This document shows, in pieces, positions 3,704 to 51,235 of a stretch of DNA of 64,000 nucleotides (position 1 is the first letter of the stretch; each line of letters starts with the position of its first letter). Origin of the DNA: an uncultured virus (IMG/VR IMGVR_UViG_3300020048_000016). Taxonomy: Duplodnaviria > Heunggongvirae > Uroviricota > Caudoviricetes. Made by a program: the position numbers and the translations under genes. Under the pieces are notes generated by a model. That model ran no database searches, was not told the origin of the DNA, and saw nothing but the letters and a program-made list of their open reading frames with translations. The stretch lies in IMG/VR virus record IMGVR_UViG_3300020048_000016; one strand, written 5' to 3'.

Positions 3704-6700
3704 ATGGCTTATAAAATATCATCATCAACATTTAGTATATCATCTCCTTTGGTTATAAAAAACGGAACAGAGGGATATGGTAAAATATTAACTACTGATG
3801 CTAGTGGACTTGTAGTTTGGAAAGAACCAAATTCATTTTTTGGAAATATTAGGTATATTGGTGAATTATATGGTGGTGGTATTGTAATTGATTTTTGGAA
3901 AGAAGGAGATGTTGAAAATACATTAATAATGTCATTAACACACTTATCATATGATTATGTTTGGAGTAATATTCCAAGTACCGGATATAGTCCTTTTTCG
4001 GATAGTTTTGTTTATTATTCTGGTGCAACTAGTTTATATGATGGTAAAAAAAATATAGATCCAATAACAAAACAGAGAGTTTATAATGTTGGTCCATTCA
4101 CTACTACAATAGTTGCATCACATACAATGAGTGCTACTAAAATGTGTGTAGATTATAATTATGGTGGATATGATGATTGGTATCTACCATCTTATGGTGA
4201 ATTTAATTCAATAATAAAAAACAAACATATTATAAATAGAGTATTAGGTGATGTAGATGGGATTAGAAGTCAAAATACTGGATCTGGCTCAGCACTAAAT
4301 GGTGTTTACTGGACATCAACGGAATATACTGAGCAAATAACAACTCCTCCAAATCCAATTTCAACTATTATTAATACCTCATATGGATTACAATACTCAA
4401 CGAGTGAAGGTAAATTTAAGGCGATTGCTAAAACTAGTTCTGCTATGGTAAGAGCGGTTAGAAGAGAAGAGAATTTAACCGGAAATGGTTTAGTTCTTTC
4501 TTTGGATGCTGGTAATAAAAATTCATATGATGATTCAACTAGAGGTAACATTTGGTATGATCTAGTTAATAAAGGAATAACAGCATCTGCTGGTTTAACT
4601 TTTTCTGCATCTGCTACAGGTGCAACATATTCTGCAACAAATAGTGGTTATATTTCATTTAAAAATAATCAAACTAGTTATATTGACTTTAAAGCAAATC
4701 TTGATAACTCGTCAATTGTTACCGTAGAAATGTTTGCTAGAATAAAAAGCACAACCGGTAATATTTTTTCTTGGGGAACAAGTGGTTATTCTATAGTTAA
4801 TGGTTGGGAATTAGGATTCTGGACAGGTGGTGGTGATAACTATGGTATTTCCGCTCAAAGAAAACAGGATTATGGTTTAGAAAATACTTGGAAACACTAT
4901 GTATTTGTTATGAGAACAGATGTTTCATATACTAATAATAAAATATATGTAAATGGTGATCGAATTACATTATCTGTATCAGCATTTGTTGGTACTGAAA
5001 GTGGAAAAAGCTTTGCTAATGGTAGTGGTAGAATAAATTCCCCAAATGCAGGATTTACAAATGGTAATGGTATGGATCTAGCGGTTTTTAATATTTATAA
5101 AAGAGAATTAAATCAAACTGAAATAGTAAACAATTTCAATAAATATAAAAAAAGATTTGAGGTTAAAGAAAGTGTTTATCAAAAGGATTTAATACTTAAT
5201 GTAAACTCAAATAATATAAACTCTTTTAATCCATCATCCGATCCAACTATTTGGGCAGATATTAGGATGTTTTCTGATTTCACTCCAACCAATGGTTTAG
5301 TTTTTGCTTCTACACCAACATATACTAAATCCGGTGGTGTTTATCCAGGAACTTTTATAAACTTTAACAGCAATAACTTAAAAGCATCAGTTACATCTAC
5401 AATAACATTTACATATTCGACAACTTGGGAAGCGTGGGTTAAATTTGATTCGGTTCAACCACGATCTGGTCCAAATATTTTTATGGGTCAGGTACTTCCA
5501 TATTTCGCAATTTCTACTAATAATTCTAATAAAATATTATTTTCCAATAGTTTTTCAGGTGTCGGTGGTGGTAGTAATCAAACATATCAGAATAGCAATA
5601 GATCGGTAACTTTTAGTGTTTGGTATCATCTTGCGTTTACTACTAAATATGATTCGGTTTCTAATACAACATCATCTAAGATTTATATAAATGGTGAACA
5701 GGATTATTCTAAAACATTAACCACAAATTCTGGTGGTGGTATAATAAATAGTGATCATATACCTGGTTATCAAAATAATATATTTTCATCTTATAAATTT
5801 TCAGTAGGTGATGGATCTAATTTAAATCCAAATGATGGTTCACCAACTTGGTCTACATTTAATGGTAGTTTAGCAGAAGTTAGAATATACAATCGAACAC
5901 TAAACGCATCAGAGATCAAAAACAATTACAATTCATCTAAAAATATTTATGATATAGATAAAAATCATGATACGCATAATTTTAATACTTCCCCTACATT
6001 TTCTATATTTCAGAATTTAACTTTAGATTTTCCAACTAAACAAAACAATTCTATATTAGTTAGTGATAATAAAGGTTTGATATCATTAAGTACACCAAGT
6101 TCTATAATATCCAATAAAAGTGTTAAGAGATCGGTAGGTGAATTATATGCTGGTGGTATAATAGTATCTGTTGTAGATTATTTATCAACTACAAACTATA
6201 TAATAGCATCATTACAAGATCTATCATCACCATATTATTGGAGTACCTTAGCCGGTTCACAAAGTATAAATCCTACTTTAAATACTAATGAATTTAACGG
6301 GTCATACAATACAGGATTAATAAAAACCGCTTTTGGTGCAGGTTCATATGCTGCTATGACAGCATCTACATATAATTATGGTGGATATACTGATTGGTAT
6401 TTACCTTCATCAAATGAATTAAGAGAGGCTTATAATAATAGTAATATTATAAACTTAGTTTTGGATAATAATAGTTTAATTGATACTTATTGGTCTTCAA
6501 CTGAATCAGCATTTGGTACTTCTTCTGGTCCAACTGTATATTATAGAAATGCATTTGCATTTAATTTTGGTTCATTAAATTCTTCACTGCCTTCAAATAT
6601 AGCAGGTGCTGGTATTGATGGTGCAACTTCATCTGGTTTGGAATTTCAGGTTGGTAAGTATAATAAATTAAAAGTTAGACCATTTAGAAGAGAAATTATT

Positions 6701-8536: not shown

Positions 8537-9595
8537 TTATACTTTAAAGTTTCTAGAATCCTTTAACTTCTCTAAAACAAATTTCTCATCCAACTCAATA
8601 TTCTTAGGTATCTTAATAGATATTCTTATATAAAGATCACCCATTCCATAATTTATATCAGGAATACCTTTACTTCCAATTCTTATACTAGATCCGTGTT
8701 CTGTTCCTGGTTCAATATAAACCGGTATCTCACCGTGTGGTGTAGAAACTTTTATGTGAGCCCCACAAATTGCATCAATAACTGATATAGTTTTTTCTAC
8801 AATAATATTATTAACTTCTCTTTTGAATGAAAAGTCTTGTGCTTCTTCTACAATTATATAAAGATCACCCGGTACACCATCTCTAATATCATTGCCGAAT
8901 CCTTGCATAGATAATTGCATACCAGTTGATACACCTGCAGGTATTTCAACATCTACAACTTGATCTTCTAATCTTGTTCCATCACCTTTACAAGATGAAC
9001 ACTTGTGTTTAATCTGTTTACCAGAGCCTTGACAATCCGGACAAGTAGACTGAGTTCTCATTTGACCGAATGGTGTATTCTGAACAACAATTCTTTGTCC
9101 TTGACCATTACATACTAAACAATCAACAACATCAGTACCACCTTTACCATTACAAGGTGTACACTTAACATTTCTTTTATATTTAAGTTTCTTAACCGCA
9201 CCTTTTAATATCTCATCTATATTAAGAACTACTTTCATTCTTAAATCAGAACCTCTCGCTTGTCTTTTTTGTTGTCTTCCACCTCCTCGGTTTCCGAATA
9301 TATCTCCAAATTGTGAGAATATGTCATCCATATTAAATCCGTGTCCACCGAATGGATTTCCTCCACCTCCACCGAATGGATTACCATCCGATCCGAAACG
9401 ATCATAGTTAGATCTTTTATCAGAATCAGAGAGTGTTTCATATGCCTCTGCTGCTTCTTTAAACTTTGCTTCTGCATTTGGATCACCTTGATTTTTATCT
9501 GGGTGAAATTCCATAGCCTTTTTACGATAAGCCTTTTTAATTTGCTCTTCTGTCGCGTTTTTATCAACACCTAAAATGTTATAATAATCACTCAT
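8537..9595 (-). CDS. dnaJ: chaperone DnaJ
   Basis: J-domain HPD motif, G/F-rich region, four CxxCxGxG motifs, C-terminal domain. Confidence 0.97.
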   Translation of the reverse strand: MSDYYNILGVDKNATEEQIKKAYRKKAMEFHPDKNQGDPNAEAKFKEAAEAYETLSDSDKRSNYDRFGSDGNPFGGGGGNPFGGHGFNMDDIFSQFGDIFGNRGGGRQQKRQARGSDLRMKVVLNIDEILKGAVKKLKYKRNVKCTPCNGKGGTDVVDCLVCNGQGQRIVVQNTPFGQMRTQSTCPDCQGSGKQIKHKCSSCKGDGTRLEDQVVDVEIPAGVSTGMQLSMQGFGNDIRDGVPGDLYIIVEEAQDFSFKREVNNIIVEKTISVIDAICGAHIKVSTPHGEIPVYIEPGTEHGSSIRIGSKGIPDINYGMGDLYIRISIKIPKNIELDEKFVLEKLKDSRNFKV

Positions 9596-15890: not shown

Positions 15891-17786
15891 ATGAGTAAAA
15901 ATGTAATTATCGGAATTGACCTTGGTACAACTAATAGCTGTGTATCTGTGGTTGAAGGCGGTGAGCCAGTTGTAATTAGTAACGCAGAAGGAAAAAGAAC
16001 TACTCCTTCAATTGTTTCATTTTCAGGAACAGAAAGAAAAGTTGGTGATCCAGCAAAAAGACAAGCGGTTACAAACCCAAAAAACACAATCTACTCTATT
16101 AAGAGATTTATCGGTAAAGACTATTCAGTTTGTACTGATGAAGTTAAAAGAGTACCATATGAAGTTAAAAAATCAAAATCTAACGTACCGGTTGTTAACA
16201 TCGATGGTAGAGAATATACCCCACAAGAACTTTCTGCGATCATTTTACAAAAAATGAAAAAAACCGCAGAAGACTATTTAGGTCACGAAGTAACTAGAGC
16301 AGTTATTACGGTTCCTGCTTACTTTGGTGATGCAGAAAGAACAGCAACTATTGAAGCAGGTGAAATCGCTGGATTGAAAGTAGAAAGAATTATCAATGAG
16401 CCAACCGCGGCAGCTTTAGCATATGGTTTAGATAAAAAGAACAATGATGCAAAAATATTAGTATTTGACTGCGGTGGTGGTACTCATGATGTTTCTGTAT
16501 TAGAAATTGGTGATGGTGTATTTGAAGTAAAATCTACTGATGGTGATACTCACTTAGGTGGTGATGATTTTGATAATGCTATTATCACTTGGATGGTTGA
16601 AGATTTCAAATCTGAAAGTGGTGTAGATTTATCTCAAGATATGATGGCATTACAAAGATTGAAAGAAGCTGCAGAGAAAGCTAAGATTGAATTATCTTCT
16701 TCTCCTTCAACTGATATTAATCTTCCTTATATCACTTCAAGAGATAATCAACCTTTACACTTTGTAAAACAGTTAACTAAAGCTAAGTTTGACCAAATGA
16801 CAAGTTCATTAGTTGAAAGAGCTATTAATTGTGCTAAGAGTGCTCTTAAAAATGCTAAATTAAATACAAGTGATATTGATGAAGTTATCTTGGTTGGTGG
16901 TTCTACAAGAATTCCTGCAGTTCAAGATGCTATTGAAAAATTCATTGGTAAGAAAGCAAACAAATCTGTTAATCCAGACGAAGTTGTTGCATTAGGTGCC
17001 GCTATTCAAGGTGCAGTATTAAATGGTGGTATTACTGATGTTCTTCTTTTAGATGTTACTCCATTATCTTTGGGTATCGAAACTATGGGTTCTGTATTCA
17101 CTAAATTGATCGAAGCGAATTGTACTATTCCAACTAGAAAAAGCGAAACCTTCTCTACCGCATCTGATAACCAACCTTCTGTTGAGTTACACGTTTTACA
17201 AGGTGAGAGACCAATGGCAAAAGATAACAGATCTTTGGGCAAATTTAACTTGGATGGTATTATGCCAGCACCAAGAGGAATTCCCCAAGTGGAAGTGACT
17301 TTTGATATTGATGCAAATGGCATCTTGTCTGTGTCTGCAAAAGATAAAGCGAGTGGTAAAGAAAATTCAATTAGAATTGAAGGTGGTTCTCAATTAACAA
17401 AAGAAGAGATTGAGAAAATGAAAGCAGATGCAGAAGCAAACGCAGAAGCAGATCAAATCGAAAGAGAGAAAGTGGAAAAATTAAATTCAGCGGACTCTTT
17501 AATTTTCAACACTGAAAAACAATTGAAAGAGTTTGACGAGAAGTTAACAGAAGATGATAAATCCGCTTTAAAAGCAGATCTTGAAGATTTAAGAAAGGCT
17601 CACGCTGATCAAGATGTTCAAAGAATTGATGAAACATCTGGTAAATTAAATGAGACTTGGAATACAATCAGTACTAGATTATACCAAGAATCAAGTCAAA
17701 ACGAATCGAATCAAACTGAAACTGCTGATACAAGTGGTAATGGCGAAGTAGAAGATACTGATTTCGAAGAAGTTACTGAAAAGTAA
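15891..17786 (+). CDS. dnaK: chaperone DnaK (Hsp70)
   Basis: [37 protein letters not shown]. Confidence 0.98.
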
Positions 17787-29961: not shown

Positions 29962-30216
29962 TTACTTATCAACTATTTCATCTATTATGTAATTTCTTAC
30001 AATAGATTTCAATTCAGATATAATCCTAGATGCAGATCTATTATCATTTGGGTAGTCCATCATATCCACCATACTTGGTTGATATACATATTTAGATTCG
30101 TCAAATTTGCTTATTAATGTAAAAATTGGTCCAAAAGTTATTTCACTCAATTCCATTTCTATATCGAAATATTTTTCAAATTTTGACAAATCATCGCTGA
30201 AAATATTCATATCCAA
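29962..30216 (-). CDS. hypothetical protein with C-terminal tag
   Basis: Ends VRNYIIDEIVDK. Confidence 0.55.
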   Translation of the reverse strand: MDMNIFSDDLSKFEKYFDIEMELSEITFGPIFTLISKFDESKYVYQPSMVDMMDYPNDNRSASRIISELKSIVRNYIIDEIVDK

Positions 30217-30626
30217 TCATATTTTACAATTTCGATACCAGCATCTCTTAGAAATTCTAAACCACTTATGTCTTTATAATCTTCAACATAAACAAGTCTT
30301 TTAATTCCAGATTGTAAAATTAATTTAGAACAGTCTCTACAAGGTGAATGTGTTTGATATAAAGTTGCACCATCACAAGATTGTCCGTGTCTAGCACATT
30401 TTAATATAGCATTAGCTTCTCCGTGAATTACAGACCATTTAGTTTCACCATTCTCCATCTCACACGAGTTTTCTTGACCAGCAGCGGTTCCATTGTAACC
30501 ATCTGATACAATCATACCACTTTTTACAATAAGTGCTCCTACTTGCTTTCTAGAGCAGTGAGACAACTTAGCCCACTCTCTTGCCATATTTAAATATGTT
30601 CTATCATATTTTTCTTGCTTCTGCAT
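30207..30626 (-). CDS. dCMP deaminase
   Basis: VGALIV, GYNG, HGEANA, SPCRDC zinc motifs. Confidence 0.93.
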   Translation of the reverse strand: MQKQEKYDRTYLNMAREWAKLSHCSRKQVGALIVKSGMIVSDGYNGTAAGQENSCEMENGETKWSVIHGEANAILKCARHGQSCDGATLYQTHSPCRDCSKLILQSGIKRLVYVEDYKDISGLEFLRDAGIEIVKYDWI

Positions 30627-30723
30627 ATATACTATTTATTTTAAGTTTTCTTATAAGGTTTTTTGGCAATGGTTCAAGATTCATATTATATCTACCCATC
30701 ATCAAATCAAGCATTCTTCCCAT
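30604..30723 (-). CDS. 39-aa micro-protein that is mostly the C-terminal tag (not in the ORF track)
   Basis: MGRMLDLMMGRYIMNLEPLPKNLIRKLKINSIYAEARKI*. Confidence 0.45.
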   Translation of the reverse strand: MGRMLDLMMGRYNMNLEPLPKNLIRKLKINSIYAEARKI

Positions 30724-30874
30724 CGAATATACAAATTATACTTATTTTTCTCTTCAAAGATCTTTGTTTTCTGATCATGTCTTTTAGAGCATTTCTAAAA
30801 GCAGATTCTGGATAAGTTCTACCATTACATTCTTTAGAAAGTTTTGCGATCTTTTCTAACTCTCTTGGACTCAT
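30707..30874 (-). CDS. 55-aa hypothetical protein with tag variant (not in the ORF track)
   Basis: MSPRELEKIAK...KRKISIICIFDGKNA*; ATGA-coupled to the upstream gene. Confidence 0.5.
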   Translation of the reverse strand: MSPRELEKIAKLSKECNGRTYPESAFRNALKDMIRKQRSLKRKISIICIFDGKNA

Positions 30875-31203
30875 CTTAACATCCAATCACCCATTCTGAT
30901 CTTTTTGAAATCAGAAACATCGTGGATATATTCATATATCCAACACTCGATATCACTCTCAGTTCTTATCTTAGTTCTAATATATTCATCACCTTCAAAC
31001 TCATCAAGTTCAGGAAATACTTTAGGATCTACTAAATAAACATCTCCAATTACTCTATCATTTCCTTTTCTTATAAATCCTGGATAGAATTCATTGACTT
31101 TATAAATTTCACCTTCAATTGTGGTTTTACCACAGAAAGTTGCTTCTTCTAAAAGACCCCTAGCAGAATCTCTAAATAAACCATAAACGAATAAGTACTC
31201 CAT
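30871..31203 (-). CDS. gamma-glutamylcyclotransferase (AIG2-like)
   Basis: LFVYG, YPG, LDEFEG..YIR, GDW. Confidence 0.88.
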   Translation of the reverse strand: MEYLFVYGLFRDSARGLLEEATFCGKTTIEGEIYKVNEFYPGFIRKGNDRVIGDVYLVDPKVFPELDEFEGDEYIRTKIRTESDIECWIYEYIHDVSDFKKIRMGDWMLR

Positions 31204-31204
31204 A

Positions 31205-31966
31205 TTAATCTTGTAATGTTTTTATTTCTTCTTTATGTTTAGCAATTCTATCATTTATCAAATCATAGTAATTCTTATCTAATTCAATTGCAATATATTT
31301 TCTTTTTGAATTAATACTAGCAATTGCCGTTGTACCAGAACCTGCTGCGTTATCAAGAACAACATCACCTTCATTAGTGTAAGTTCTTATCAACCATTCA
31401 AGACAATCTATACTTTTCTCAGTTCTATGTTGAGCAACTGAAGGATGTGGTTTTTGAAAAGATAAAATAGATTTAGGATGTTTTTGTGTAGATCCTGCTC
31501 TATTATCATCAGTCATTTCAAATGCGCCATAGTTAGAGTTTTTATGTTCCTTATCCATATAAGTTTTACCTTTTGAATGAAGAGGTTTACCAATAGTGTA
31601 TTGTGGATTATAAGTAGGTAATTTCTTATAGAATATTGCAATTTGTTCGTGAACTCTTAAAGGCATTCTATTTGCGTTTAAGAAACCACTAGTTAAATGT
31701 TTATCCCAGATAAGATCATATCTAAATAGTTTTCTTTTTGAATTGATTAGATCAACATAAAATAAACCTTGTGCGAAAAGTACAATAGCACCATTCTCTT
31801 TGATTATTCTTTCATACTCTTTCCAAAGTTTATCCAAAGGAATAACAACGTCTTTTTGATTTTGAGTTGTACCGTAAGGTAAATCACACAAAATCATATC
31901 AATTGAACCATCTGGTATATTTTTCATAACTTCCAGACAATCTCCGTGTATAACACTATTGCTCAT
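31205..31966 (-). CDS. N4/N6 DNA methyltransferase (beta class)
   Basis: DLPYG, H.TEKS, VLDNAAGSGTT. Confidence 0.92.
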   Translation of the reverse strand: MSNSVIHGDCLEVMKNIPDGSIDMILCDLPYGTTQNQKDVVIPLDKLWKEYERIIKENGAIVLFAQGLFYVDLINSKRKLFRYDLIWDKHLTSGFLNANRMPLRVHEQIAIFYKKLPTYNPQYTIGKPLHSKGKTYMDKEHKNSNYGAFEMTDDNRAGSTQKHPKSILSFQKPHPSVAQHRTEKSIDCLEWLIRTYTNEGDVVLDNAAGSGTTAIASINSKRKYIAIELDKNYYDLINDRIAKHKEEIKTLQD

Positions 31967-32144
31967 AAATTTTATTTATTTTTTCTTTTCTTATTTTTTC
32001 TTTATTGAAACCAAGCAAATCAGCAATCCAATCTCTATTAAAATATGGTTTTCCGGAATCATCAGATACACTACTTAAATCATTGAATATATTTATTCTT
32101 TTCATTAATAAATCTGTTTTAGATTTCTCATCATTCAATTCCAT
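31956..32144 (-). CDS. small protein resembling a portal C-terminal segment, plus tag
   Basis: DLLMKRINIF...KPYFNRDWIADLLG; ends IRKEKINKIYEQ. Confidence 0.5.
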   Translation of the reverse strand: MELNDEKSKTDLLMKRINIFNDLSSVSDDSGKPYFNRDWIADLLGFNKEKIRKEKINKIYEQ

Positions 32145-32313
32145 ATACTCTATATATTTTTTTCATACGACGGTAATTTTTCTCCTGAAAGATTTCCGAT
32201 AATGCCTGACTTACTTGTTGAGAGGTTATGATATAGTTTGCAGCACCACTACTACTCATTTTATTGATGTAATTAGAAGACTGCAATACTTTATCATATA
32301 AACTCTGTGTCAT
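32131..32313 (-). CDS. small protein resembling a major capsid protein segment, plus tag
   Basis: LYDKVLQSSNYINKMSSSGAANYIITSQQVSQAL; ends RRMKKIYRVYGIE. Confidence 0.55.
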   Translation of the reverse strand: MTQSLYDKVLQSSNYINKMSSSGAANYIITSQQVSQALSEIFQEKNYRRMKKIYRVYGIE

Positions 32314-32873
32314 TATTTCACTTTGTCAATTTTTAAAACTTCAATCTCAATCAAATTCATTCTTCCGAATATTGATACCGCAACTTTAACTTTATCTCCT
32401 TTGATTGATTCAATTTTACCATTGAATGTACTGAATGGACCATCTAAGATCGTTACTTCTTCACCAACGATATATCTAGATACTTCTTCTTCTTTAACTT
32501 CTTTTGATGCTTCATGATCACCGATCATTCTACTTACTTCAGATTGAGTAAGAGGTAAAATATCACCTGCTCTATTTGTTAGAAAGCCAGTTGCACCATT
32601 AACACCTTTTAAAAAGTATTTTAATTCACCAACTGCTGCGGTTTCAACGAAAATATAACCTGGAAATTTTACTTTCTCTCTTTGTATTTTCTTACCATTC
32701 TTTAAATAAGAACTATGCTCAACTGGTACTATTACATTACTCAATTTACCCATTAGATCACCTACTTCTGATTCTTTCTTTAACTTCTCAGCAACAGATC
32801 TCTCTTTGTTACCAGCAGCACGAACTACATACCAAGATGTAGTAGTTTTTCTTTTTGTCGTTATCTCACTCAT
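32313..32873 (-). CDS. nusG: transcription factor NusG
   Basis: WYVV...KE, FPGYIFVE, KOW motif VTILDGPFSTFNGKI, VSIFGR. Confidence 0.93.
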   Translation of the reverse strand: MSEITTKRKTTTSWYVVRAAGNKERSVAEKLKKESEVGDLMGKLSNVIVPVEHSSYLKNGKKIQREKVKFPGYIFVETAAVGELKYFLKGVNGATGFLTNRAGDILPLTQSEVSRMIGDHEASKEVKEEEVSRYIVGEEVTILDGPFSTFNGKIESIKGDKVKVAVSIFGRMNLIEIEVLKIDKVK

Positions 32874-34700: not shown

Positions 34701-35609
34701 ATGTTGTTAACAAAATTCATAAACATAATAATGAATAGAGGAAATCTTGGATATTATAACCGAGTTATGAATAAAAAATACAAAGTAGGTGATAATGATG
34801 ATATTCCTATGGAACTTATACCTAAAACTATGAATGTTGATGTCGATGTTGAATGTGATATATGTAAATCAAAAATGATAAAAAATTATAAAACATACAA
34901 CTCCTGCCTAGAATATGGTTTCTATAGTTGCAATAAATGCAAACACATAAAAAGAAAAATGACAAATAAAGAAAAATATGGTGATGAGAATTTTATCAAT
35001 ATTGATAAAAGAAAAGATACTATGAGTGATAGGTATGGTTTTTATAACAACAACCGAGAAAAAAGTAAGACTACTTGTATTGATAAATATGGTGAGGATA
35101 ATGTATCTAAGGTAGATTCTGTTAAAAATAAAAAGAAAGAAACCAATAATAAAAATTGGGGTGTAGATAACGTATTTCAATCAGATGAAATTAAGAGAAG
35201 ATCAGATATAACAATGTTTAAAAATCACGGTGTAAATAGAGCACTACAAAATATCGATTTATTTAATAAGGCTCAAATAAGTGGATTTAAAATAAAAAGA
35301 TATAAGGATATTGGCTATTATAGAGGTAAATATGAATTAGACTTCTTAGAATATTGTGATGAAAATAATATAATAGTTACCAATGGTCCATCAGTAAGAT
35401 ATATTTATAATGATGTCAATAAAGTATATCATTCTGACTTTTATATAAAAAATGAAAATTTGATATGTGAAATAAAATCATCATATACATATAATTATAA
35501 CAAAGAATTAAACGACGCTAAAAGAGAAAGTTGTATAGAAAATGGTTACAATTTTATATTTATAATTGATAAGGATTATAGCGAATTGAGCAAAATAATA
35601 AATAAATAA
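34701..35609 (+). CDS. free-standing putative homing-type endonuclease (Zn ribbon, KYG repeats, PD-(D/E)XK domain)
   Basis: CDIC/CNKC; repeated K.T..(E/D)(K/R)YG..N; YHSDFY...ICEIKS; opposite strand to neighbours. Confidence 0.65.
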   Translation: MLLTKFINIIMNRGNLGYYNRVMNKKYKVGDNDDIPMELIPKTMNVDVDVECDICKSKMIKNYKTYNSCLEYGFYSCNKCKHIKRKMTNKEKYGDENFINIDKRKDTMSDRYGFYNNNREKSKTTCIDKYGEDNVSKVDSVKNKKKETNNKNWGVDNVFQSDEIKRRSDITMFKNHGVNRALQNIDLFNKAQISGFKIKRYKDIGYYRGKYELDFLEYCDENNIIVTNGPSVRYIYNDVNKVYHSDFYIKNENLICEIKSSYTYNYNKELNDAKRESCIENGYNFIFIIDKDYSELSKIINK

Positions 35610-38836: not shown

Positions 38837-40241
38837 ATGAATCAAAAAAGTATAACCAATTTTTTATCAAATGAATATAAGGGTTTTGCTTTCTATGTTA
38901 TAGAAAATAGAGCTATACCAAATGTTATTGATTTTTACACATGGGAGAAATTAACTACTGGAGCANNNNNNNNNNGCTCTTCCATCTGTAATTGATGGGT
39001 TTAAACCGACACAACGTAAAATAATACACGTTTGTAGTCAGATATGGAAGACAGGTGCTGAGAAACCTCTTAAAGTCTTCCAATTAGGTGGTAAAGTAGC
39101 AAGTGATGCTTTTTATCATCACGGTAATATGTCACTTGAAAATGCTATTGTAACAATGGCTCAGAAGTTTAAAAACAACGCTGCTTTATTAGAAGAAGTT
39201 GGACAATACGGATCTTTAAGATCACCACAAGCAGGTGCACCTAGATATATCGGAACTAAACTAAATAACAATTTTAAACTAATTTATAAAGATTCTGACT
39301 TATTAGAATTTAAAGAAGAAGAAGGTGAATCAATTGAACCACATTATTTTCTTCCTATCATACCAATGGTTTTAATAAATGGATCTTCTGGTATCGCGGT
39401 TGGTTTCGCGATGAACATTCTAAATAGAGATATCAAAAGTGTTACAGAAGCTTGTATAAATACACTTAAAGGTAAAGGTATAACTGAGATTAAACCATCT
39501 ATAAACGAATTCAGTGGTGAATTCATACAAGATATAGAAAACAATAAAAGATGGATAATAAGAGGTAAATTTCAACGAGTTAATACATCAACAGTTAGAA
39601 TTACTGAGTTACCACCATCAATGACCTATGAGAAGTATGAAGCAATCTTAGATAAATTGTGCGACGATAAAGTTATTGTTTCATATGATAACAATTGTAA
39701 AGATAATATCGATTATGTTATAAAATTCACACGTGCTGAGTTGGAGAAAATAACAGATGAGAAATTAATTAAAATATTTAAACTAGAGGAATACTCAACT
39801 GAGATATTCTCTACGCTAGATGAGTTTGGTAAATTAAAAATATTCGAAAACACATCTGACATAATCAGATATTTTGTTAATTTCAGACTTGAATACTATC
39901 ACAAGAGAAAAGAGTTTATGTTGAACAAGATGAGACATGATCTTAAAGTTCTTTCTAATAGAGGTAGATTTATCAAAGCAATCTTAGATGAGAAATTAAA
40001 AGTTAATAATGTTTCTAAACCAGATATTATAAAAGGTATCGAAGAAATGAATCTAGAACAAATAGATGGTAACTATGACTACTTATTGAGAATGCCGATC
40101 TACTCTTTAACAAAAGAATTATTCGAAAAGTTAAAAGCAGATTTTACCGCAAAGAAAGAAGAAATTAAAGTATTAGAAGAAACAGATCCAAAAGATATGT
40201 ACCTTCTAGATTTAGATGAACTTAAAAAGAAATTTAAATAA
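38837..40241 (+). CDS. type IIA topoisomerase cleavage subunit (T4 gp52-like), interrupted by an assembly gap
   Basis: 5' part MNQK...IENRAIPNVID; after the gap ALPSVIDGFKPTQRK, YHHG, GAPRYI (catalytic Tyr), GIAVGF. Confidence 0.92.
38966..38975. other. scaffold gap (10 N)
   Basis: N-run. Confidence 1.
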
Positions 40242-49556: not shown

Positions 49557-51235
49557 ATGGTAATTAAGAACATCCACGAGAAATTATTGAATGGTATCCA
49601 GCAAATGCTTATCGATACGAAAATAAATTTACCTTATTATGGTGAATTCAACTTACACGTGAGTTTCCACGAACAAGATTCGATTGGTACTTGTGCAGTG
49701 AATATGACACCTAAGGGTATGAACTTCTACTACTCACCAAAGTTCTTGGCTGATATGTCACAAAAAGAAGTAAACTTTATCACTCTTCACGAGGATTTTC
49801 ACTTACTTTTTAATCACCCTAAGAGAACGGTATCTGGTCAATACGATCATAAAATGTCTAACATTGCTCAGGATATGATCATCAACCACATCATCTGGGA
49901 AGATATTCCACGAGCATTCGTAGAGATTCCTAAGTCACCAGATGGTAAAAATATGGCTTTATTCGTACCAAAAGAATACAAAGGTAAACTTATCTTCGAA
50001 GAGTTGTACGAGTGGTTGAAAGATGAGAAAGAGAAGTGGGAGAAAGAGAAGAAACAAAATTGCTCTTGTAAATCTTGTAACGGTACTGGTAAAAAACAAG
50101 ACCAACAAGGCCAACAACAACAAAAAGGTCAAGGTCAACAACCAGGTGATGGCCAAGAGCAAGGTGACGGTCAAGGTGGTCAAGGTCAAGAACCAGGCGA
50201 AGGTCAAGGACAAGAGCAAGGAGATGGTCAAGGAGACGGACAAGGACAAGGTAGTGGTCAAGGTCAACAACCAGGTCAAGGACAAGGTGGTGGTCAAGGT
50301 CAAAGCGAACTAGGTCAAGAGCCTTGCCCAGATTGTGGTGGCTCTGGCTCAGAAGGTGGTAAAGACTCAACGGGAAAACCATCTTATGGTCCCTATGGTC
50401 AGAACCCATCTAAAGATGGTGATGCTATCGACACTTGGTCAAAAGAGCAAATCTTCGAGAATATGGAAAACAACAATGGTGAGTACTTAGATAAACACAT
50501 TGGTGATGAAGTACCAGAAGAGATGCGTGATGCGATGGTTAAAGATGTTATGGATAGATTAGCAGCACGTGGATTAGCGTCTGGTAACCTTGAAACTACA
50601 CTTAACAAGTTACGTAAGAAAAGAAAAGATTACTTGAAAGAAATCAAGAGAGCTGTTTCAAATATGATCTTTGGTACAAATAAAGTAAGAACTATTGTAA
50701 AACCAAATCGTAAACAGATTTCTGGTATCAAAGGAACACGAAAAGTTAAGACCGCAATAAATGTTATCTTAGATACATCAGGTTCTATGGGTAATACTTT
50801 TGAGAAAGTACTTTCTTACATCTACCGAAATGATATCGAAGTGAATATGATCCAAGGTGATACTGATGTTAAATGGGTTGACAAGTTTATGGACAAAAAG
50901 AAAATTGAACGAATGGTGATTGCTGGACACGGTGGTACTGTTCTTCAACCATCTGTAAACTATGTTGTTGAGCACTTTAACAAGTACAATACTGTGATCT
51001 TGAGTGACGGTTATTGCGACACTCTTGACCTAAGTAAGTTAAAAGGTAAAGTGTTGGTAATATCGATTGGTGTTAAAATACCAATTGGTAGATCAAATGG
51101 TCGAGTTNNNNNNNNNNAGACTTAAGTAAACTTAAAGGAAAGGCTTTGATTATCTCAATCGGCGTTAAAGTACCACTAGGTAGAACAAATGGTAGAGTTA
51201 AACAAATCTGTGTTGACATCGACAGCGATAGATAA
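49557..51235 (+). CDS. DUF2201-type metallopeptidase-VWA protein (MoxR partner); C-terminus crosses a gap
   Basis: LHEDFH (HExxH), NIAQD.IIN, LDTSGSM (MIDAS), GHGGT, ILSDGY; G/Q-rich linker flanked by CKSCNGTG and CPDCGGSG. Confidence 0.85.
51108..51117. other. scaffold gap (10 N)
   Basis: N-run. Confidence 1.

Follow-up and report, generated by a model that had tools for sequence, protein, structure and literature searches.

A small gene of a huge T4-like phage that joins a capsid-protein segment to a shared basic tail

Small single-domain microProteins that titrate their parent protein are established in plants and animals, and in phage T4 the internal proteins carry a capsid targeting sequence that sits at the N-terminus and is cut off at a protease site. 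In the conflict between phage and host, a short piece of gp23, T4's major capsid protein (MCP), has been described as a ligand in its own right: the accessible part of PMC3014915 places the Gol region, which is sensed by Lit, in the first quarter of gp23 and reports that a 29-residue gp23 peptide suffices for Lit. Several defence systems are reported, in the available portion of PMC13728456, to be triggered by MCPs, the prohead protease and capsid vertex proteins. For the capsid itself, the part of PMC9546572 open to us locates N381 and A387 of gp23 in a short helix of the A domain, where neighbouring subunits of a capsomer meet, and describes N381S and A387T as gp24-bypass mutations that enable gp23 to form pentamers as well as hexamers. 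Here we describe a gene for a protein of 60 amino acids (aa) on the minus strand of a 64,000-nucleotide stretch of an uncultured virus (IMG/VR record IMGVR_UViG_3300020048_000016, Caudoviricetes); this whole stretch is called the window below. The protein, called the mini-protein, consists of a part homologous to a segment of a gp23-type MCP, followed by a basic C-terminal tail.

The mini-protein resembles T4 gp23 (PF07068; PDB entries 6uzc, 5vf3, 8gmo and 8t9r) over about 40 A-domain residues, and the pattern G-x-x-N-[FY]-I-I-x-S-x-x-V-x-x-x-L is common to both. However, it has 60 residues instead of the 520-580 of gp23 MCPs, covers about a tenth of the fold and cannot build a capsid shell; its gene lies outside the head gene cluster, after a NusG gene, and its basic tail is absent from MCPs. 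A complete HK97-type fold (N-arm, P domain, A domain and insertion domain) is not present in its 60 aa. Like a microProtein, it would be a short protein taken from the interaction region of a larger one without the parent's other parts, its origin from an interaction surface being read from alignment only; a common tail across unrelated fragments, however, is not a feature of microProteins, our literature searches met no microProtein class in phages, and binding of the mini-protein to its parent is a hypothesis. The tail is comparable to the capsid targeting sequence of the T4 internal proteins in that it is a short peptide common to unrelated small phage proteins and a potential address label. 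It is C-terminal rather than N-terminal, however, and the sole protease-like site nearby, L-S-E, precedes the tail in the clade of the window while its E is not kept in distant members. Like the Gol peptide in its dealings with Lit and EF-Tu, the mini-protein may be a short gp23-type stretch that acts alone as a ligand, but Gol is part of the full capsid protein and triggers defence, whereas the mini-protein has a separate gene and its segment lies about 70% along the capsid protein. We ruled out that the mini-protein is the Gol region itself, because it aligns to residues 360-389 of the 521 of T4 gp23 and Gol lies in the first quarter as described in the accessible part of PMC3014915.

The capsid-like segment and its gene

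The gene and its two parts lie as follows.

32131..32313, minus strand: mini-gene, 60 aa, with ATG at 32313-32311 and TGA at 32133-32131
32191..32307, minus strand: MCP-like segment, mini-protein residues 3-41, placed by the Pfam Gp23 model, hhalign and the T4 gp23 alignment
32143..32172, minus strand: basic C-terminal tag, residues 48-57 (R-R-M-K-K-I-Y-R-V-Y), then G-I-E

The original prediction was that of a mini-protein made of an MCP segment plus a tag. The open reading frame (ORF) listing contains the 60-aa ORF at exactly 32131..32313 (minus) with the sequence quoted there, and profile searches with Pfam, the PDB and MCPs of the lineage all found the match to gp23-family MCPs on which this anatomy depends. 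The window protein matched Pfam Gp23 (PF07068) at E 6.2e-4 and 19.7 bits, with its residues 3-41 on positions 222-260 of the 376 of the model, and phrog_138, "major head protein", at E 6.3e-4; its relative at locus L008 reached 32 bits on the same Pfam model, for which the cut-off is 24.4. For the further comparisons we used an alignment of 30 mini-protein clusters (A1), a 22-row family alignment (A2), 26 MCPs of the huge-phage lineage (A3) and the DNA loci of relatives L003-L008, of which L006-L008 were found by single-protein IMG/VR scans. PF07068 was matched at E<=0.1 by 21 of the 22 members of A2 (best E 3e-8) and phrog_138 by 20 of them (best E 1.2e-7). In hhalign, A2 aligned with A3 at a probability of 93.2% and E 3e-7 over 43 ungapped columns, which place mini-protein residues 2-43 on MCP 409-451. 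When the A2 profile was searched against the PDB, the four best matches were all T4 gp23 chains, at residues 360-389, without gaps over 30 residues and at E 0.08-0.1. The T4 gp23 string given in the original prediction agrees with this alignment from EAVEIARQ onwards; its first seven letters appeared in no output.

Tested on 120 MCPs from the huge-phage lineage, the A2 profile reached a median score of 26.9 bits, compared with 14.7-16.1 bits on T4 gp23, so descent from the lineage's own MCP type fits better than a T4-like donor. The first helix of the mini-protein and the MCPs of the lineage also have an S-N-Y-I stretch in common. Among 75 small intergenic ORFs of the window searched against Pfam (E<=0.01), the mini-protein was the only one to match a phage structural family; when 77 small window ORFs were compared by BLASTP with 670 large ORFs, it matched the MCP at E 0.003, and the small ORFs gave no match when reversed. 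Besides the tail, the MCP-like core is the most conserved part across the family in both A1 and A2. Judged from these alignments, residues 2-43 of the mini-protein are homologous to one segment of a gp23-type MCP. Its single sequence found no MCP at E 1e-3 among 1.84 billion representatives, and relatives only 45-55% identical occupy the same slot; the gene is therefore not a recent capture.

In the AlphaFold2 model of the monomer (mean predicted local distance difference test score, pLDDT, 79), residues 3-21 form a helix, residues 22-31 (G-A-A-N-Y-I-I-T-S) an extended loop or strand and residues 32-57 a second helix. The A2 profile-PDB alignment sets N381 and A387 of T4 gp23 against Q33 and S39 of the mini-protein, and in A1 Q33 is at least 90% conserved and S39 is invariant. 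By this alignment, the mini-protein would copy, among other things, an intracapsomer interface element of the capsid protein. An AlphaFold2 model of the lineage MCP, made from 26 close sequences, had a mean pLDDT of 45.5 and was unusable for the secondary structure of the parent segment. The predicted complex of lineage MCP and mini-protein scored 0.00 in two runs, which is evidence for neither side.

Several lines of evidence bear on the reality of the gene. A word-indexed search found 30 clusters at 68-98% identity to the mini-protein, nearly all of 58-65 aa, and an exhaustive HMMER search of the 1.84 billion representatives yielded 17 proteins with E<=1e-3, of which 14 were small (44-69 aa, 35-70% identity) and three were long. 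The protein is kept in about 44 clusters of uncultured huge T4-like phages, the full ones being 58-75 aa long. In codons 0-44 (numbered from L5), the window and L003 are separated by 14 synonymous and 6 non-synonymous codon changes, and the frame is intact, without frameshifts, in all four DNA copies compared; this pattern points to a gene that is under purifying selection. The stop codon stands at the same place in the four copies and yet varies (TGA, TGA, TAG and TAA), so the stop is genuine and not recoded, as three different stop codons occur at one position. The ATG of the gene shares one base with the stop of the upstream NusG-like gene (TAATG), an arrangement by which the mini-gene is, as predicted from the DNA, translationally coupled to the phage NusG gene. 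Taking these observations together, we regard the mini-gene as a real, old and selected gene of a huge AT-rich T4-like phage.

An IMG/VR scan with alignment A1 produced 593 pattern matches, none of which was confirmed. In tblastn against the window the mini-protein found only itself (next best E 0.39), hence no paralogue in the window, and against 50,697 phage records it gave seven records at E<=10, none of them significant (best E 2); the matches included the capsid-gene place of LR745206.1 and one place in LR756502.1 (642,428 bp). The nearest ESM Atlas clusters had scores of 0.88-0.89, below the 0.9 lead level, and this weak match was labelled Bacteroidota. In a marine metatranscriptome run, 8% of the sampled words were present; the contigs were mostly 85-95% alike and so came from relatives, and positions 32149-32245 were uncovered.

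As a side observation, the long proteins P0038 (549 aa), P0032 (675 aa) and P0034 (2638 aa) match the mini-protein in 5-8 stretches. P0038 and P0032 are tandem repeats, and the unit of P0038 has a core like that of the mini-protein (H-P-A-M-N-Y-I-L-C-A-Q-R-M-A-K-S-I-H).

The tail and other genes of the same design

The tail was called a tag in the original prediction, and it turned out to be a recurring C-terminal motif, R-K-x-K-I-x-x-I-[FY] (for the class also written R-K-x-K-I-x-x-I-[FYW]), which likewise ends neighbouring mini-ORFs of the window, mini-ORFs of the relatives, including those that flank the mini-gene there, and small ORFs of the uncultured phage LR745206.1. This phage, of 634,780 bp, is the closest GenBank relative of the window (74.7% identity over 22% of a 6-kb query). 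The last 13 residues of the mini-protein, R-R-M-K-K-I-Y-R-V-Y-G-I-E, are a variant of the motif, while distant members have canonical forms such as R-K-E-K-I-K-R-I-F; in A2, with its 22 rows, conservation is at least 90% at both R49 and K52. We reassembled LR745206.1 from pieces and ran a regular expression for the tag on the last 22 residues of its ORFs. Among 3711 six-frame ORFs there were 19 matches in these C-terminal tails and 11 in the ORF bodies, or 0.23 against 0.04 per 1000 aa, a five-fold difference; the reversed motif had four matches and was not enriched. Seventeen of the 19 ORFs were 30-83 aa long and about 15 of the 19 were canonical. A start was called on the same strand within 40 nt after the tag in 9 of 17 tagged ORFs of LR745206.1, two of its MCP-fragment ORFs bear the tag without any gene following, and synonymous codons differ among its tags. 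We take the tail to be a genuine peptide motif, the codons of which often do double duty. When all six frames of LR745206.1 were searched for untranslated tag copies, 93 matches came up, mostly junk as the pattern let stops match.

In MinD, a C-terminal amphipathic helix targets the protein to the membrane. We rejected a helix of this kind for the tag, because the mean hydrophobic moment of 21 tag 9-mers (a list in which the window tag appears twice and two of the matches are doubtful) was 0.32, equal to the background mean of 0.32, and only 2 of the 21 lay above the 90th percentile of the background.

The following mini-ORFs carry the tag or a similar end, a candidate fragment, or both.

31956..32144, minus strand: next mini-gene, of 62 aa, with the end R-K-E-K-I-N-K-I-Y; perhaps the tag joined to a C-terminal fragment of the portal (gp20)
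30707..30886, minus strand: mini-ORF, 59 aa, with a looser tag-like end, K-R-K-I-S-I-I-C-I-F; conserved in L003
30604..30723, minus strand: mini-ORF, 39 aa, ending R-K-L-K-I-N-S-I-Y, just before the dCMP deaminase gene
L006 6176..6376, plus strand: second MCP fragment plus tag, 66 aa; Gp23 model 166-199, E 1.6e-5, 24.9 bits (over the cut-off)
L004 279..401, plus strand: prohead-protease-like tagged ORF, 40 aa; Peptidase_S77, E 4e-3
L005 1761..1877, plus strand: prohead-protease-like tagged ORF, 38 aa; Peptidase_S77, E 2e-3
LR745206.1 83154..83393 (plus), 265897..266055 (plus), 460435..460831 (minus), 255010..255367 (minus), 440158..440361 (plus) and 93266..93520 (plus): further fragment mini-ORFs

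The next mini-gene of the window has 18 homologous clusters and a near-invariant C-terminal half, S-R-D-W-I-A-D-L-L-G-F-N-K-x-I-I-R-K-E-K-I-N-K-I-Y. When its family profile was run on 467 large ORFs of LR745206.1, the best match was the T4-type portal (E 0.0037, residues 454-488), with which it has P-Y-F-x-x-[DE]-W-I-x-D in common, and none of 19 members matched Pfam Portal_T4; it is possibly of portal origin. For the ORF at 30707..30886, Pfam gave no family with E under 0.1 and PHROGs gave none at E of up to 1, so that no parent was found. The ORF at 30604..30723 had no match in the Pfam or PHROG family scans either; it corresponds by eye to a 51-aa ORF in the same slot of LR745206.1, which has a weak likeness to the portal C-terminus (Portal_T4, E 0.048, model 385-425). 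An ORF of L007, at about 6440..6530, resembles this 51-aa ORF and is by eye the likely counterpart of 30604..30723; it ends at a TAA two codons ahead of the tag, and the overlapping dCMP deaminase start is intact.

The second MCP fragment of L006 directly follows the mini-gene copy of that locus, and the prohead-protease-like ORFs of L004 and L005 matched phrog_207 at 0.027. The tagged ORFs of LR745206.1 include matches to Gp23 model 164-194 and 302-356, next to the latter of which an adjacent ORF copies, by eye, the preceding MCP strand, and a fragment of a scaffold-like repeat protein encoded beside the MCP gene (E 3e-36). The fragments listed for this phage include a scaffold-repeat piece, two adjacent MCP C-terminal pieces and a piece of the MCP spine region, and an untagged fragment of the MCP N-terminus was also found (E 5e-7). 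One tagged ORF contains D-F-A-S-L-Y-P-S, which we take to be polymerase motif A, and its best match among the large ORFs, a weak one at E 6.6e-3, was an N-terminal DNA polymerase B gene. Tagged ORFs of LR745206.1 adjoin genes for NAMPT plus NUDIX, an N6/N4 methylase, Sir2 and DnaJ, and the DnaJ gene lies directly ahead of two of them. On these comparisons the parents of the fragments are clear for further MCP segments and the scaffold, and weaker for the prohead protease, portal and DNA polymerase.

We counted as one class small ORFs (about 35-85 aa) in which the N-terminal part shows homology to a short stretch of some large, conserved protein of the phage, which end in the shared basic tail and which are kept by selection. 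All three features were found in the mini-gene, and by this comparison it belongs to a hitherto undescribed class of "conserved fragment plus shared tail".

Two side observations concern LR745206.1. Among the fragment mini-ORFs listed, a piece with I-N-S-Y-Y-G is polymerase motif-B-like by eye, and its best match among the large ORFs was an RNase H/FEN-type exonuclease gene (E 0.005). At 222134..222304 (plus), within a 508-aa frame with one in-frame TAA, there is a weak Gp23 match (model 102-163, E 4.4e-4), which may represent a vertex paralogue akin to gp24, a gene that is broken or a stop that is recoded.

The slot between NusG and dCMP deaminase

The window has a G+C content of 29% and carries DNA-metabolism genes of T4 type, namely both topoisomerase II subunits, an RNase H/FEN-type exonuclease, dCMP deaminase, RNA ligase and tRNA nucleotidyltransferase. 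Neither tblastn of the mini-protein nor the family scans found a capsid gene in the 64,000 nt. Because of these T4-type genes, the relative LR745206.1 and homologues of the mini-gene on contigs of up to 686,955 bp, we assign the window to a huge T4-like phage. The following neighbours define the place of the mini-gene.

32313..32873, minus strand: phage NusG-like gene, whose stop overlaps the mini-gene start; Pfam NusG E 2.5e-14, KOW E 1.1e-5, phrog_6386 3.7e-26
31205..31966, minus strand: N6/N4 DNA methyltransferase, cargo of the variable slot; Pfam N6_N4_Mtase 1.8e-26
30207..30626, minus strand: dCMP deaminase, conserved far border of the variable slot; phrog_174 1e-54

These Pfam and PHROG matches bear out the earlier claim that the mini-gene sits in a non-structural setting after nusG. 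In the window, as in L003, L005, L006, L007 and L008, its place is between the genes for NusG and dCMP deaminase, and the deaminase border was found in L002-L008; the contig of L004 stops immediately upstream of its mini-gene, and only the deaminase side is visible. This position, downstream of an RNase H-type gene, is kept even where the mini-proteins are about 45-55% identical. The content of the slot varies: methyltransferases, a GGACT-like gene, a ParB-like gene and further mini-ORFs are present in some cases and absent in others. In L005 a methyltransferase is inserted between NusG and the mini-gene, so that the coupling to NusG is not obligatory. The slot of LR745206.1 contains one 51-aa ORF alone, without the mini-gene.

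Some observations concern the wider region. An endonuclease-like gene lies at 34701..35609 (plus) of the window, with PHROG endonuclease and homing-endonuclease matches, and endonuclease-like ORFs at L003 359..1012 and L007 4696..5274 were judged by eye alone; such genes are inserted around the RNase H-NusG block at places that differ among the relatives, and the region is a hot spot for mobile genes. The window also encodes a full-length Hsp70/DnaK at 15891..17786 (plus; Pfam HSP70 E 4.6e-246) and a three-domain DnaJ at 8537..9595 (minus), with J domain, zinc-finger centre and C-terminal domain. Two runs of 10 N each, at 38966-38975 and 51108-51117, are assembly gaps, and the second falls within an HNH-endonuclease-like ORF (49557..51125). 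Many gene starts of the window have A-rich leaders, often with AAATAAAT, and no Shine-Dalgarno sequence. TAnnTTTG, which is a motif of Bacteroidota promoters, stands just upstream of several window starts, and with 107 sites in total against 104.6 in shuffles it is not enriched; the host of the phage is possibly a member of the Bacteroidota.

What the mini-protein may do

We give about an even chance to the reading that the mini-protein is a molecular mimic with a common handle. Its capsid-like part would occupy a binding site that is normally taken by a piece of the capsid protein, and its basic tail would dock the mimic to a shared reader, the existence of which we infer, as we do any binding and the timing of expression. 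The mimicked site could belong to a sensor with which the host recognises conserved phage proteins, the mini-protein then being a decoy or an antagonist, or to capsid subunits or assembly partners of its own or a competing phage; we hold each of these two versions to be rather unlikely when taken by itself. That the mimic instead delivers a chaperone to its parent protein seems less likely still, although the phage encodes its own full-length Hsp70 and DnaJ and the DnaJ gene of LR745206.1 precedes two tagged ORFs, as would suit a chaperone adaptor. In a broader version, which we put forward tentatively as possible but on the doubtful side, the class would form a modular system of "signature peptides", in which the best-conserved segments of essential head and replication proteins are re-encoded as separate, early, tagged mini-proteins with a shared tail reader, and the panel would blind host sensors or sabotage the homologous proteins of competitors. 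Such a panel would draw on the capsid shell, scaffold, prohead protease, portal and DNA polymerase, and the mini-gene would be its capsomer-interface-helix member.

As an immune decoy or antagonist, the early mini-protein would show a capsid piece to a host sensor of head proteins and block or misdirect it before the real capsid appears, while the tail would disable or relocate the sensor. This agrees with the capsid and prohead-protease proteins reported as defence triggers (PMC13728456) and with the 29-residue gp23 peptide that is enough for Lit (PMC3014915), as far as the accessible parts of both sources describe them. The parents of the tagged fragments, that is, MCP, protease, portal, scaffold and polymerase, are conserved phage proteins of the kind that sensors tend to recognise. 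The mini-gene shares its variable slot with DNA methyltransferases, and the tagged ORFs of LR745206.1 stand beside NAMPT plus NUDIX, a methylase and Sir2; neighbourhoods of this sort often hold counter-defence genes. Nevertheless, we know of no sensor for the MCP segment in question, and most known capsid sensors read folded proteins and not pieces of 40 residues. An early mimic of a trigger would be dangerous unless it is a pure antagonist, and the family is deeply conserved in sequence and position, unlike counter-defence genes, which evolve fast. The segment also differs from the Gol region. We keep this explanation at a low probability, and the same holds for the proposal that the mini-protein acts on head assembly. 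In that case, it would bind capsid subunits at the copied intracapsomer interface and either restrain or steer assembly of its own heads or poison co-infecting T4-like phages. The aligned T4 helix carries N381 and A387, the subunit-interface residues whose changes permit pentamers (accessible part of PMC9546572), and the other tagged fragments copy MCP segments, scaffold, protease and perhaps portal, which is a head-assembly set; the microProteins of plants and animals, which titrate their parents, also speak for it. However, the resemblance to the lineage MCP is distant and the invariant residues differ, and no MCP close to the mini-protein was found in the phage records or the 1.84 billion representatives, so that there is no evident target. 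Members of the class derived from DNA polymerase do not fit assembly control, nor does the position of the mini-gene among DNA-metabolism genes, which in T4 are early.

A number of results weigh against a mimic that is still in use. The window protein alone stays under the Pfam Gp23 cut-off (19.7 against 24.4 bits). Over the segment it is about 30% identical to the lineage MCP by hhalign, and its invariant G-A-A-N-Y-I-I-T-S stands against the invariant G-P-A-Q-Y-L-I-T-N of the MCPs, from which it follows that the mini-protein has long been under constraints of its own; it need not, by this comparison, still fit any MCP surface. Mimicry of an interface also fails to cover the whole class, because some fragments come from the catalytic core of DNA polymerase (at weak E-values) and not from an interface. 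LR745206.1 and LR756502.1, the closest GenBank relatives, are without the mini-gene, so it is dispensable in the lineage. As for the tail, in all four tagged ORFs of the window the tag codons coincide with the A-rich region where the following gene starts and with its ATG, which lies within or right after the [YF] codon of the tag (at 32144 in the case of the mini-gene). Between the window and L003 the last 12 codons of the mini-gene have no nucleotide change, against 20 changed codons in the first 45, and in L007 the DNA for the tag (F-R-K-E-K-I-K-R-I-F-D-G-E) is kept upstream of dCMP deaminase behind a stop codon. Because of this overlap, the unchanged codons and the L007 remnant, conservation of the tag is partly at the level of DNA and to that extent needs no reader. 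The same three observations would suit an exapted scaffold, in which descent from an MCP is mere history, the protein now binds something else, for example nucleic acid, RNA polymerase or NusG, or a chaperone via the tail, and the tag is largely a by-product of overlap. A-rich leaders like AAATAAAT are general in the window, the mini-gene is apparently coupled to NusG, and Hsp70 and DnaJ are phage-encoded, with DnaJ directly ahead of two tagged ORFs in LR745206.1. We nevertheless consider exaptation unlikely. The MCP-like core is most conserved and a match to the Gp23 model persists in 21 of 22 members, which argues for selection on the capsid-like surface. At C-termini the motif shows a five-fold enrichment and its reverse none, the tag occurs without a following gene and with varied synonymous codons, and in L005 a methyltransferase separates the mini-gene from NusG. 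Finally, the gene could be decaying debris of a duplicated capsid gene, without function, since it is short, falls alone under the Pfam cut-off and is absent from the closest GenBank relatives. This is hardly credible, because about 44 clusters keep its length (58-75 aa for the full ones) and frame, synonymous changes exceed non-synonymous ones, no frameshifts occur in the four DNA copies and the slot is conserved across deep divergence.

In the full-text literature (paywalled papers and supplementary files lay outside the search) we came across neither an account of capsid-fragment mini-genes nor one of fragments of this kind with a tail in common. As far as the published record can be searched, the fragment-plus-tail design is new. 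For annotation, the result means that Pfam Gp23 matches on tiny ORFs of huge phages mark a conserved gene class and not gene-calling noise or broken capsid genes. The class is easy to test, as each member is a peptide of 40-80 residues with an identifiable parent. If its members are mimics with a common handle, they would represent a new principle of phage biology, in which short signature pieces of essential proteins are reused as stand-alone effectors. This would bear on how phages cope with immunity that senses conserved structural proteins, and on the means by which giant phages with a long infection cycle regulate the assembly of their heads or shut out competitors.

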